From the UHGV virus genome UHGV-0243446: a stretch of DNA of 11,725 nucleotides; one strand, 5' to 3'. The notes beneath the pieces were generated by a model. That model saw only the letters and a list, made by a program, of their open reading frames with translations. It was not told where the DNA came from and did not search any database. Below are positions 7,186 through 11,475 of this stretch, piece by piece (the first letter of the stretch is position 1; each line of letters opens with the position of its first letter). A program made the translations under genes and the position numbers. Origin of the DNA: a virus.

Positions 7186-7575
7186 TTAGTCAGCGAAGGT
7201 TAAGACGAGAATTACCTTAATGATGTCTGCTACAACAGACACGGCCATAGATAAACCAAAGACAATCCAAGCCATAGAGATGTCTTCACTACCATCGTAT
7301 AGAGTTCCGTAATCACTGGTGTAAGGCGTAAATGTCGCGCCTTGATACAACAGGTATAAGCTTGAACCATAGAGGATAAATGCAGATATCCCTTGTATTG
7401 CTATGATCACCAGAATCATGAAACGAGCTGATCTATGCGCCCAAGCCTGGCTTATTTTTTCTGATAGAGATTTCGCAATAAAAGCATGCGCTAAGCCGTA
7501 AATTGTCGAGATTTCCAACATCCCCAAAAAGCTTGCTATAGCGGTTCCAACCATAATCGCCCCTTGCGTGATCAA
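7186..7575 (-). CDS. Small polytopic membrane protein (3 predicted TM helices) in the rex/immunity-region position
   Basis: Track ORF begins with TTG overlapping the cI stop. An ATG about 7554 with AAGGGG RBS is likely the real start (about 122 aa). Three hydrophobic segments of about 22-25 residues. Downstream of cI on the same strand, as rexAB is in lambda. Confidence 0.6.
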   Translation of the reverse strand: MITQGAIMVGTAIASFLGMLEISTIYGLAHAFIAKSLSEKISQAWAHRSARFMILVIIAIQGISAFILYGSSLYLLYQGATFTPYTSDYGTLYDGSEDISMAWIVFGLSMAVSVVADIIKVILVLTFAD

Positions 7576-8288
7576 ACCAGCCTTAGTTTTGTCTCAATTG
7601 CAACGCCTATAATCTTGCAGTTTCCATTGATTGGCACGAGAGGCCATGCAGGATTAAGTCCCTTGAGGTATTTATTTCCGCCGTCGATTATCAGCTTCTT
7701 GAATGTTGCTTCGTTAGAGTCAGAAAGTTTTGCTATGACCAAGCTGCCGTTGATCGCCTCCCTTCCGGTATCGAAAAGAACGAATGTTCCCTCTGGAATG
7801 CTTAACCCAACCGGTGCCGTCATTGAATCACCTTCCACTTTAAGCCAGAACGCATTACCTTGAATATGCGCGTCAGACTCAAGCCAAACATCTATGTCTT
7901 TAATGGTGTATGGTTCGCATGCTTCACACCACGAGCCAGCCTGGATACTGCTTAACACCGGATACCTCTTTCCTGCTCTGTATTCCCCTGCATACCTTAC
8001 GTTGGCATCGCTCTTAAGGCTTTCTGCCTGTTCTGCAACCTTGGCAGCAATTGACTGGCTAAAATCAGCAATTGAGACTTGCAACAGTCGTGCAAAACCA
8101 GATGCAACCTCAACGTTTAGCGCGTTTCTGCCATTAAGATAATGCCCTACCGCTCCTTGGGTGATACCCAGTTCATCAGCGATTGAGTATTGGGTTATTC
8201 CCAATTCTTTCTTTTTTGACTCATACAAAGCCTTAAGCCGCTTAGCGTCTTCGAGCTGTTCTGTCGTCAGTGATTTTTTATTTTCCAT
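7572..8288 (-). CDS. cI: cI-type phage repressor (HTH N-domain plus S24 LexA-like autoprotease C-domain)
   Basis: N-terminus MENKKSLTTEQLEDAKRLKALYESKKKELGITQYSIADELG resembles lambda cI. Ala-Gly cleavage site in IQAGSW. Catalytic Ser in GDSM and Lys in FKKL. Start codon abuts the operator region. Confidence 0.92.
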   Translation of the reverse strand: MENKKSLTTEQLEDAKRLKALYESKKKELGITQYSIADELGITQGAVGHYLNGRNALNVEVASGFARLLQVSIADFSQSIAAKVAEQAESLKSDANVRYAGEYRAGKRYPVLSSIQAGSWCEACEPYTIKDIDVWLESDAHIQGNAFWLKVEGDSMTAPVGLSIPEGTFVLFDTGREAINGSLVIAKLSDSNEATFKKLIIDGGNKYLKGLNPAWPLVPINGNCKIIGVAIETKLRLV

Positions 8289-8394: not shown

Positions 8395-8589
8395 ATGATT
8401 CGAATGACACTTGCCGATTACGCCAAAATCCATGGACAGGCTAAAGCAGCCAGTGACTTTGGTGTAATCCAGTGCGCTATCAGCAAGGCCATTCTGGCAG
8501 GCCGTAACATTATGGTTACGGTAAAGCCTGATGGCAGTGTGATTGGAGAGGAAGTTCGTCCTTTCCCAAGCAACAAGAAAAACAAATAG
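8395..8589 (+). CDS. cro: Cro repressor
   Basis: Product [64 protein letters not shown] resembles lambda Cro. GGAGAG RBS at 8384-8389. The track start at 8389 is a GTG; ATG at 8395 is preferred. Confidence 0.88.
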
Positions 8590-8595
8590 TAACAC

Positions 8596-8640
8596 CGCTC
8601 TTTAACAGTCATGGTCCTCATTCCCGCCGAAATGCGGGAA
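8596..8640 (+). promoter_or_regulatory. nutR: boxA (CGCTCTTTAACA, 8596-8607) plus boxB hairpin (8621-8640)
   Basis: boxA matches the lambda boxA core CGCTCTT. boxB TTCCCGC-CGAAAT-GCGGGAA is a perfect 7-bp stem and is identical to the nutL boxB. Confidence 0.75.
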
Positions 8641-8697
8641 TACAACGCGCATCAGTTGGTGCGTATAACTTCTTATTTATTAAGGAAATACTTACAT

Positions 8698-8976
8698 ATG
8701 CAACTTACAAGTACTCGCAAGAAAGCGAATGCAATTACAAGCAACATCCTGAATCGAATTGCTGTACGTGGTCAGCGAAAGGTTGCTGATGCATTAGGGA
8801 TTAATGAATCGCAAATTTCGCGATGGAAAGACAGCTTTATCCCAAAGATGGCCATGCTTCTGGCTGTGCTGGAGTGGGGTGTTGAAGACGAGGAATTAGC
8901 GGAGCTGGCAAAGAAAGTAGCCATGGTGCTGACAAAAGAAAAGCCTCAAGACTGCTGCAACAGTTTTGAGGCCTGA
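8698..8976 (+). CDS. cII: cII transcriptional activator
   Basis: ATG at 8698 with AAGGAA RBS. Product ...ESQISRWKDSFIPKMAMLLAVLEWGV... resembles lambda cII (KSQISRWKRDWIPKFSMLLAVLEWGV). The track start at 8611 lies inside nutR and has no RBS. Confidence 0.85.
   Translation: MQLTSTRKKANAITSNILNRIAVRGQRKVADALGINESQISRWKDSFIPKMAMLLAVLEWGVEDEELAELAKKVAMVLTKEKPQDCCNSFEA
8700..8745 (-). promoter_or_regulatory. PRE-like cII-dependent promoter (TTGC-N6-TTGC on the minus strand at 8731-8744)
   Basis: Plus strand reads GCAA-TTACAA-GCAA inside the 5' end of cII, the position of PRE in lambda. The -10 element is not confidently located. Confidence 0.5.
8930..8972 (-). terminator. Intrinsic terminator on the minus strand (oop-RNA-like antisense terminator inside the cII 3' end)
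   Basis: 12-bp stem GCCTCAAGACTG/CAGTTTTGAGGC with a 6-nt loop (8943-8972). On the minus strand it is followed by a U-rich tract (complement of ACAAAAGAAAA, 8932-8942). Confidence 0.5.
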
Positions 8977-9010
8977 TGTAGAAAGACTGGATCAATCCAC
9001 AGGAGTAATT

Positions 9011-9172
9011 ATGACAAAACGTCGTAAGAAATACCAGGAAAAAGAAGAGATTCGACACCCTGATTCACCTGAGGGATTAGTGGTAGCCGCAGCAAATAAC
9101 AGGGCGTTCGCAGAGCGCCTTGTTGGTGTTTACAGACTAGCCAAAGCAGGAGTGAAGCATGGGCGTCGTTAA
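9011..9172 (+). CDS. Hypothetical small basic protein (53 aa) between cII and the replication initiator
   Basis: ATG about 9011 with AGGAG RBS about 6 nt upstream; its stop overlaps the start of the downstream O-like ORF. The track's longer version begins with TTG at 8966 inside cII. Confidence 0.35.
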   Translation: MTKRRKKYQEKEEIRHPDSPEGLVVAAANNRAFAERLVGVYRLAKAGVKHGRR

Positions 9173-10049
9173 GTTAGCTGATTACAGGCATAACCCTGTA
9201 CAACATCAGGAGGCATCCAGTATGGGGTATGTCTCTATACACCGCCAGTTTATGGACAGCAGGCTCTATAAGGACTCTCAGGCAGTACATCTTTGGCTTC
9301 ACTTAATCCTCAAGGCTAATCACGAATCTACTGTCGTCAATACGGATATCGGTCCGATAACTGTTGATCGCGGTCAGATGATAACTGGACGCCCGTCGCT
9401 GGTCAGAGAAACATTCATCCCCGACAACAAAGTTCGGAGCTTATTACGGACTTTTGAGTCGAAAGGGATGCTTAATATTTGCTCGATGGGGAAGAAATTT
9501 AGCCTGTTTACAATCGTTAAATATGACGATTTTCAGGCAAAAAATTGTCCAACGGTTGTCCAACGGTTGTCCAACGCAAACACCAGTAATGGCGCGGCTC
9601 TCAGCGGAGATTGTCCAACGGTTGTCCAACGGTTGTCCATAAACAATAATATAAATAATATCTCTAATACTGACGTATTAGAGAGTGCCACAGCAGACAA
9701 AAAGTCTGACAAGAAAAAACCTTCCGTCAGCTGTCAGGATGTTGTCGATGCTTACCACGAAATCCTTCCTGAAGCGCCAAGAATCCGCGCACTGAATGAC
9801 AAGCGTAAAAACCAGATCCGAACGTTCTGGCGCAAAGCCGGAGTGATAACCCGCCAGCTTGACGGGCATGGGTTCACGATGCAGGACTGGAGAAATTATT
9901 TGAGCTACGTAGGCGAAAATTGCCGATGGATGTTCGAAGAACGCCCAAACCATCAACGCGGAACCGTCTGGCACAAAAAGGGATTTGATTTCCTGCTTAA
10001 CGACAATACCTACCTGAAAGTTCGTGAGGGTGAACACGATGACCGATAA
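9159..10049 (+). CDS. Replication initiator (lambda O-like / replisome organiser) containing the origin iterons
   Basis: Sits in the O position and is translationally coupled to the helicase. Iterons and an AT-rich tract lie inside the coding sequence, as ori-lambda lies inside O. An alternative start at ATG 9222 has a strong AGGAGG RBS. Confidence 0.7.
   Translation: MGVVKLADYRHNPVQHQEASSMGYVSIHRQFMDSRLYKDSQAVHLWLHLILKANHESTVVNTDIGPITVDRGQMITGRPSLVRETFIPDNKVRSLLRTFESKGMLNICSMGKKFSLFTIVKYDDFQAKNCPTVVQRLSNANTSNGAALSGDCPTVVQRLSINNNINNISNTDVLESATADKKSDKKKPSVSCQDVVDAYHEILPEAPRIRALNDKRKNQIRTFWRKAGVITRQLDGHGFTMQDWRNYLSYVGENCRWMFEERPNHQRGTVWHKKGFDFLLNDNTYLKVREGEHDDR
9545..9643. repeat. Phage replication origin iterons: six copies of an 11-bp repeat TTGTCCAACGG in two triplets
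   Basis: Copies at 9545-9577 and 9611-9643 with 11-bp register. Followed by an AT-rich tract (9641-9665) and a 9-bp inverted repeat CTCTAATAC-TGAC-GTATTAGAG (about 9660-9685). Confidence 0.75.
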
Positions 10050-11475
10050 TTTTTATGCGCCGCCCCATAGCATCGAGGCAGAGCAGGCGGTTATTGGTGG
10101 ATTGCTTCTGGATGATGACAGCAGTGAGCGCGTCCGGAAAGTTCTGGCGATGCTGAAGCCTGATTCATTTTACAGCCGACCACACAAAATCCTTTTCGAA
10201 GAAATAACCAGAATGCACCGGGAGCAAAAGCCAGTAGATGGGCTGACGCTTTTCGATGAACTGGAGCGCAAATCGTTAACGGCGTCTGTTGGCGGTTTTG
10301 CTTATATCGCTGAGATCGCAAAGAACACGCCAAGCGCAGCAAACATCGTTGCCTATGCAATGCAGGTTCGTGAAACCGCAATGGAACGCTACGCCATCAA
10401 CCGCATGACTGAAGCGACGGAATTGCTCTATTCCCGCAACGGAATGACTGCAACGCAGAAGTACGAAGCTATTCAGGCGATTTTCACGCAACTGATAGAT
10501 CATGCAAAAACCGGATCGCGTCGCGGCCTTCGCTCATTTGGTGAGGTCATGGAAGACTGGGTTAGTGACCTTGAGAAGCGATTTGACCCATCAGGCGAAC
10601 AACGGGGAATGAGCACAGGGATCCCATCGCTGGACAGGATGCTGTCACCGAAAGGTCTGGTGAAAGGCTCTCTGTTTGTCATTGGCGCCCGCCCTAAGAT
10701 GGGGAAAACGACGCTATACAGCCAGATGGCAATCAATTGCGCAGTGCATGAGAAAAAGCCCGCTTTGATGTTCAGCCTTGAAATGCCAGGTGATCAGATA
10801 CTGGAAAAACTGGTAGGGCAGAAGTCTGGTGTTAACCCGAATATTTTTTACCTTCCGGCGACAAATGACGCTGATGACGGCTATCAGGGTGATTACGATG
10901 GTGACTTCAACAGGGCGATCGAAACAGCCAATCGCTTGAGTGAAATCGACCTGCTTTACATCGACGACACGCCGGGATTATCTCTGGCTCAAATCGTCAG
11001 CGAAAGCCGTCGAATCAAGCGAGAAAAAGGATGTGTTGGCATGATTCTGGTCGATTACCTGACACTAATGACCGCTGAGAAGGCCGATCGCAACGACCTT
11101 GCTTACGGCATGATCACCAAAGGACTGAAGAACCTTGCCAAAGAGCTTGATTGCGTTGTTGTGCTTCTGACACAGCTTAACCGCGCACTGGAAAGCCGAA
11201 CCAATAAACGCCCATTACCAAGTGACTCACGAGATACAGGGCAGATTGAACAGGATTGCGATTATTGGGTCGGGATCCATCGTGAAGGCGCTTTTGATGA
11301 CAGTGTTCCACCTGGTGAAACTGAACTAATCCTTCGTCTCAATCGTCATGGCAATACCGGCACGGTGTATTGCATTCAGGCAAATGGCGCTATTTATGAC
11401 ACAGACCAACAGTCTGCTGAAATGCGCCGCCGTGAACGCGAGGAACCGCAGTCCAAGAAGAAAGGAGGATTCTGA
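10039..11475 (+). CDS. DnaB-family replicative DNA helicase
   Basis: N-terminal PHSIEAEQAVIGGLL motif typical of DnaB. Walker A GARPKMGKTT; Walker B-like ILVDYLTLM. ATG 10039 with GAGGGTGA RBS overlaps the O-like stop. The track start at 10024 is a GTG. Confidence 0.9.
   Translation: MTDNFYAPPHSIEAEQAVIGGLLLDDDSSERVRKVLAMLKPDSFYSRPHKILFEEITRMHREQKPVDGLTLFDELERKSLTASVGGFAYIAEIAKNTPSAANIVAYAMQVRETAMERYAINRMTEATELLYSRNGMTATQKYEAIQAIFTQLIDHAKTGSRRGLRSFGEVMEDWVSDLEKRFDPSGEQRGMSTGIPSLDRMLSPKGLVKGSLFVIGARPKMGKTTLYSQMAINCAVHEKKPALMFSLEMPGDQILEKLVGQKSGVNPNIFYLPATNDADDGYQGDYDGDFNRAIETANRLSEIDLLYIDDTPGLSLAQIVSESRRIKREKGCVGMILVDYLTLMTAEKADRNDLAYGMITKGLKNLAKELDCVVVLLTQLNRALESRTNKRPLPSDSRDTGQIEQDCDYWVGIHREGAFDDSVPPGETELILRLNRHGNTGTVYCIQANGAIYDTDQQSAEMRRREREEPQSKKKGGF

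Follow-up and report, generated by a model that had tools for sequence, protein, structure and literature searches.

Which leftward signals overlap the cII gene of the virus genome UHGV-0243446, and exactly which nucleotides form them? A sequence-only reading of the 11,725-nt stretch analyzed here (hereafter the window) had proposed two elements on the strand opposite cII: an activator site of the promoter PRE, matching the consensus TTGC-N6-TTGC, within the 5' end of the gene, and the terminator of an oop-like antisense RNA within its 3' end. Our analysis indicates that the two classical leftward elements, PRE and oop, very probably do overlap cII, in their P22-type versions, and that the activator box of PRE, judged by homology, is an imperfect repeat located closer to the start of the gene than the motif originally named.

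The immunity region and the cII gene

A listing of open reading frames, combined with searches, identified a lambdoid immunity and replication region in the window, with a cI-type repressor gene and cro to the left of cII and three further genes to its right (Table 1). The assignment of cII is firm, since its 92-aa product matched the Pfam family Phage_CII over the full length (150 bits, E 1.9e-44) and the lambda CII structures 1XWR/1ZS4 among PDB chains (E 4.6e-23); a cognate activator of the CII family is thus encoded in the same window as its predicted target. At 279 nt, the gene is equal in length to P22 c1, Sf6 gene 41 and HK620 cII. No Pfam family was matched by the 53-aa ORF that follows cII.

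Table 1. Features of the immunity and replication region, with positions in the window and the basis of each assignment
Feature	Position	Strand	Basis or remark
cI-type repressor	7572-8288	-	ORF listing and searches; left of cII
cro	8395-8589	+	ORF listing and searches; left of cII
PRE -10 hexamer AAGTAT (predicted)	8688-8693	-	13 nt (8694-8706) downstream of the box
cII / P22 C1 homologue, activator gene, 92 aa	8698-8976	+	Overlapped by both antisense elements
PRE activator box TTGCGAGTACTTGT, TTGC-N6-TTGT (by homology)	8707-8720	-	cII nt 10-23; homologous to the lambda cII / P22 C1 site
Look-alike motif TTGC-N6-TTGC, TTGCTTGTAATTGC	8731-8744	-	cII nt 34-47; codons A-I-T-S-N
oop intrinsic terminator (predicted)	8934-8974	-	Hairpin and U-tract; folds; P22 and phage L annotation
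Predicted oop-type antisense RNA, ~63-66 nt	8935-9000	-	Identity with P22 oop RNA; lambda 5'-end alignment
5' stem-loop of the predicted oop RNA	8978-9000	-	Fold prediction, window and P22-type relatives
pO promoter (by homology)	9008-9036	-	-10 CATAAT 9008-9013; -35 TGGTAT 9031-9036; 17-bp spacer
53-aa ORF, HK97 gp53 / Sf6 gene 42 type	9011-9172	+	Shine-Dalgarno and start codon overlap pO and the oop 5' end
O-like initiator	9159-10049		ORF listing and searches
DnaB-type helicase	10024-11475		ORF listing and searches

The prophage module that carries the cII antisense elements is very common: DNA related to it was found in 1124 of 5426 complete E. coli genomes. The 591 bp around these elements showed 98.6% identity with Stx-converting phages and 93-94% identity with mEpX2, IME10, HK542, Sf6 and others.

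Two further features of the region were noted outside cII. Downstream of cro lies a nutR-like site (8596-8640), composed of boxA CGCTCTTTAA (8596-8605) and a hairpin resembling boxB, TTCCCGC-CGAAAT-GCGGGAA (8621-8640). Nut boxA is annotated in the records of mEpX2 and HK140, and nutR across the homologous stretch in that of HK620. The O-like gene encodes the peptide CPTVVQRLS twice, 22 residues apart (window ~9546-9639), and this duplication suggests iterons of a lambda-type origin inside the gene, where such repeats are annotated in Sf6, HK620 and ES18.

The activator box of PRE

PRE was assigned to the box at 8707-8720 because of the annotated offset in relatives, the alignment with lambda, the conservation of the repeat and the 13-nt spacing to the -10 hexamer. 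The box sits on the strand opposite cII, in the 5' end of the gene, facing cro and cI. In the P22 record BK000583, c1 nt 10-23 are annotated as 'P22 C1 protein, activation of P RE', and the P-RE promoter feature extends from -10 to +23 relative to the ATG, consistent with the hexamer proposed for the window. The Sf6 and epsilon34 records likewise place an activator site at cII nt 10-23, and the HK620 record annotates a PRE binding site at cII nt 1-24. When aligned with lambda, the window box corresponds column for column to TTGCGTTTGTTTGC, the spacer between box and hexamer is equally long in both phages, and the 20 nt preceding the cII ATG, hexamer included, are identical.

The position of the repeat is strongly conserved. 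All 15 diverse cII genes compared contain TTGC-N6-TTG[CT] at nt 10-23 (nt 13-26 for phage L and its group, owing to one additional codon), and these include genes with unrelated N-termini such as those of HK629, epsilon34 and the Erwinia phage Eho59. A comparison of the 23 distinct haplotypes formed by the first 60 nt of P22-type cII genes, collected from 240 IMG/VR loci, found the box intact in every one; the N6 segment varies synonymously, and the third-codon positions within the tetrads are invariant. According to the epsilon34 genome paper, the CII proteins of P22 and lambda recognise TTGCN6TTGC/T (PMC2629481). A different version of the P22 PRE site for C1, TTTCN6TTGT, is quoted in PMC12111858 and is contradicted by the P22 sequences BK000583 and M10074, which show TTGCGAGTGCTTGT; the quoted form is probably a slip in the paper, and the P22 sequence was taken as authoritative.

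The homology thus argues that PRE is present and uses 8707-8720 as its activator box, which supports the leftward, cII-dependent promoter that had been predicted over the 5' end of cII, by way of a box other than the one first proposed. CII would bind the direct repeat TTGC-N6-TTGT, flanking the -35 region of an otherwise poor promoter, and would recruit RNA polymerase to a start near 8681, a site that we infer from the position of the -10 hexamer. The transcript would then run leftward through cro, antisense to it, and into cI, thereby establishing repression.

A perfect consensus match inside cII

The motif named in the sequence-only reading is real: TTGCTTGTAATTGC is the sole TTGC-N6-TTGC in the window, and it lies on the minus strand near the beginning of cII, 24 bp upstream of the PRE box. 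Its interpretation as the activator site is almost certainly mistaken. A perfect lambda consensus on the correct strand within the 5' end of cII is what the CII-binding site of PRE might be expected to look like, but this one is separated from the -10 hexamer by 37 nt, compared with 13 nt in lambda and P22. Its counterpart in P22 and ES18, phages with a PRE site annotated at another position, reads CTGCTGGTAATTGC, with a broken tetrad (CTGC), and no other cII group (L, lambda, HK629, epsilon34 or Eho59) has the motif. Among the 23 haplotypes it is intact in 16 and broken in 7, through changes of N to S or A to E and, once, through the synonymous replacement AGC>AGT. Dinucleotide-preserving shuffles produced a mean of 1.09 TTGC-N6-TTGC matches per window, with at least one match in 134 of 200, so the bare motif carries no statistical weight. 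We regard it as exceedingly improbable that 8731-8744 is the CII-binding site of PRE; the match is most likely fortuitous, a by-product of the A-I-T-S-N codons.

A promoter of its own for this motif was also sought by inspection of the sequence and rejected: the position 13 nt away, where the -10 would be expected, reads CGAGTA, which is unsuitable, and AGTACT is found only at 15 nt.

Could 8731-8744 instead be a second, auxiliary CII site, specific to E. coli/Shigella/Cronobacter alleles? Such a site would lie at about -50 to -63 from the predicted PRE start and would act through cooperative binding or as part of a second weak leftward promoter. If so, it would tune, from upstream, the steepness of the PRE response to CII concentration, and PRE would have a two-site design that is undescribed in lambda or P22. 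A perfect consensus would rarely occur this close to the real box (the shuffle rate predicts ~0.005 same-strand matches within 100 nt), and it has been kept in three diverged DNA backgrounds, namely the window type, the TTGCTTGTGATTGC type and the ENT47670 type. That retention, however, is explicable by conservation of the protein sequence NAITSN, and the motif is dispensable in P22, in ES18 and in natural variants, including the one with the synonymous break. Moreover, a centre-to-centre distance of 24 bp places the two repeats on different helical faces, and the 13-nt spacing offers no suitable -10. An auxiliary role therefore seems very unlikely to us, and the fortuitous match is preferred.

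The minus strand between 8700 and 8744 contains six TTGY tetrads in 45 nt (5' positions 8744, 8740, 8734, 8720, 8710 and 8703), more than in P22; the cluster may reflect the usage of K/N/T/S/A codons at the CII N-terminus. As a general lesson for annotation, a perfect consensus match can mislead when an imperfect site, here one with a TTGT half-site, holds the conserved position.

The oop terminator in the 3' end of cII

The strong minus-strand hairpin with a U-tract that had been described in the 3' end of cII was recovered. Its stem-loop (8941-8974) comprises 13-14 bp with one internal A/C mismatch, a core G-C stem at 8943-8972 and the loop UGCA at 8956-8959, and it is directly followed on the minus strand by the U-tract UUUUCUUUU (8942-8934). 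The minus strand from 9000 to 8925 folds at -25.8 kcal/mol (z = -3.3), a value equalled by 0 of 200 shuffles, and the terminator hairpin alone folds at -17.5 kcal/mol. Unlike the bare TTGC motif, this hairpin exceeds chance expectation. A simple terminator consensus scan of the window did not call it, probably because the internal mismatch splits the stem.

Related records annotate the same element. BK000583 carries 'terminator, oop; similar to phage lambda' at c1 nt 242-284, equivalent to window 8939-8981, the phage L record has a minus-strand terminator in the homologous place, and the HK629 record marks a lambda-type oop. As the complementary hairpin should also form in the rightward cII mRNA, the structure could in principle act on the plus strand only, to stabilise the 3' end of that mRNA or mark it for processing, or to terminate rightward transcription. 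The plus strand, however, continues after the stem as CTGATGTAG, and the T-tract exists on the minus strand only, for which reason the rightward terminator was rejected. In P22, the leftward RNA has been sequenced and ends exactly at the U-tract, and the conserved -10 of pO lies ~65 nt upstream on the minus strand. A role confined to the plus strand is accordingly given almost no credence here, and we read the hairpin as the terminator of a leftward oop RNA.

Comparison across relatives was made by folding each sequence separately and reading the pair lists in register from the base of the stem; RNAalifold, applied to a MAFFT alignment of eight terminator variants, returned a near-zero consensus energy with mis-registered stems. 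Each of nine sequence types, lambda included, formed a hairpin of 10-13 bp (-14.8 to -20 kcal/mol) followed by a U-rich tract, and double compensatory changes were present at several stem positions (UA to GC, AU to GC, CG/UA/GC to GC/AU/AU). A survey of 32 distinct 50-nt regions from IMG/VR loci, anchored on the stop codon, found hairpin and U-tract kept in 31, with at least nine different stems; the single exception is a frameshifted cII in which the stop-codon anchor is displaced. The CII tails encoded by this region vary freely (PQDCCNSFEA, APKNGEFFEA, APSAGTLEA, APMSGNSFEA and others). Because the terminator persists while the peptide changes, constraint on the cII 3' end appears to act on the RNA structure of the oop terminator and not on the C-terminal peptide of CII, a view to which the comparative data lend modest support. 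It also fits the statement that in lambda the last 17 residues of CII are dispensable for activity and required for OOP regulation.

The C-terminal tail of CII seems to travel together with the oop terminator as one module (window 8930-8976): in loci L005, L096 and L097, unrelated CII bodies (Eho59, epsilon34, HK629) bear a P22-type or lambda-type tail together with its hairpin.

The predicted oop RNA and its promoter pO

The predicted oop RNA covers the last 42 nt of cII, with the stop codon, and 24 nt of the intergenic spacer. Between 8997 and 8935 the window agrees with the P22 oop RNA at 61 of 63 nt, and both mismatches (8956 and 8958) fall in the hairpin loop. The P22 RNA is listed as 63 nt long in a small-RNA-seq study of P22 infection published in 2026 (PMC13397905, Table 2), and transcriptome data for the P22-like prophage BTP1 revealed an ncRNA at the same position, OOP-BTP1 (PMC7067206). 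Alignment with lambda places the 5' end at G9000, and the P22 reads start at the equivalent of 8997. This homology lends weight to the proposed oop-like antisense RNA over the 3' end of cII and puts its 3' end at ~8935, close to the position near 8930 that had been predicted. A search of Rfam gave 0 matches at the gathering threshold, and those with E up to 10 were at chance level, none of them named oop.

A leftward promoter had been suspected between 9000 and 9060, and a candidate, pO, was indeed located there. A TG at 9015-9016 precedes its -10 and makes it an extended -10; on the opposite strand the hexamer CATAAT reads ATTATG, at the start of the downstream ORF. The P22 record BK000583 annotates 'promoter, oop' 310-338 nt from the c1 start, equivalent to window 9008-9036, and in lambda the pO -10 is given as ATTATG at 38684-38689 (Hayes 2012). 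The -10 is invariant in 8 aligned phages, including lambda, P22, Sf6, HK620, ES18, L and HK629, as well as in those IMG/VR relatives whose sequence reaches pO. The -35 of the window, TGGTAT, is weak (2/6 match), and those of lambda (TTGAGT) and P22 (TGGTCA) are stronger; the strength of pO in the window is uncertain because of this weak -35 in its mosaic arrangement. A simple sigma-70 consensus scan of the window called neither PRE nor pO, the former being activator-dependent and the latter having a poor -35.

The stretch around pO (9000-9040, minus strand) has the character of a mosaic junction. Across IMG/VR loci L011-L090, an unchanged oop body and CATAAT occur with three alternative -35 sequences, according to the downstream gene: TTGAGT with lambda O, TGGTCA with P22 orf48 and, as in the window, TGGTAT with gp53. 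The Sf6 record labels the stretch adjoining pO 'boundary sequence', and Hayes 2012 described a lambda/P22 hybrid with the same break at -19 of pO. The oop/pO segment appears to be a place where lambdoid modules join by recombination, again with modest support from the comparative data.

By this reconstruction, pO would act as a constitutive extended -10 promoter, starting an RNA of ~65 nt at ~9000 that would stop at the intrinsic terminator and be complementary to the 3' end of cII. Lambda OOP base-pairs with the 3'-terminal part of the cII mRNA and promotes degradation of this mRNA that depends on RNase III; CII levels fall as a result, and lysis is favoured. The RNase III dependence of oop action was demonstrated in lambda only. 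By analogy, pairing in this phage may lead to RNase III-dependent decay of the cII mRNA, less CII and lytic growth. We infer transcription in this phage, its exact start sites and the RNase III mechanism from these relatives.

Comparison with known phages

The value of the analysis lies in a correct annotation of the locus, with the PRE box at 8707-8720, oop at ~9000-8935 and pO at 9008-9036 placed by homology. It builds on observed sequence elements, on their homology to annotated or RNA-detected counterparts, and on conservation and covariation among relatives. Neither PRE nor oop is new as an element: by position and sequence, each is a homologue of elements annotated in P22, Sf6, HK620, L and epsilon34, and their counterparts have been investigated in lambda and detected as RNA in P22 and BTP1.

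P22 provides the closest layout: the gene has the same length, and every element keeps its offset, from the box at c1 nt 10-23 and a -10 hexamer spaced 13 nt from it to an oop terminator that straddles the stop codon and a pO that overlaps the start of the next ORF. Within this layout, one N6 base of the PRE box differs (GAGTAC in the window vs GAGTGC in P22), the PRE -10 is the lambda-type AAGTAT instead of GAACAT, the -35 module of pO is of the gp53 type (TGGTAT) instead of the orf48 type (TGGTCA), and nt 34-47 form a perfect TTGC-N6-TTGC where P22 begins with CTGC. Sf6 and HK620 share the PRE region of the window, both TTGC sites included, and their records annotate P-RE with a binding site at the cII start. 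These two phages, together with BTP1, carry an alternative terminator stem (GCCUCGAAGAAU.../...GUUCUUCGGGGC) and the CII tail APKNGEFFEA, not those of the window.

The likeness to lambda extends over the TTGC-N6-TTGY box at cII nt 10-23 and the identical 20 nt before the ATG with the -10, the pO -10 CATAAT, the homologous 5' ends of oop and the intrinsic terminator inside the 3' end of cII. The distal tetrad of the box is TTGT in the window and TTGC in lambda, and the terminator stem and the C-terminal tail of CII belong to a different sequence type. The predicted overlap of oop with cII amounts to 42 nt, compared with 55 nt in lambda, and the RNA is predicted to be ~63-66 nt long, compared with 77 nt for lambda OOP RNA. 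Finally, the gene that follows pO is a gp53-type ORF in the window and O in lambda.
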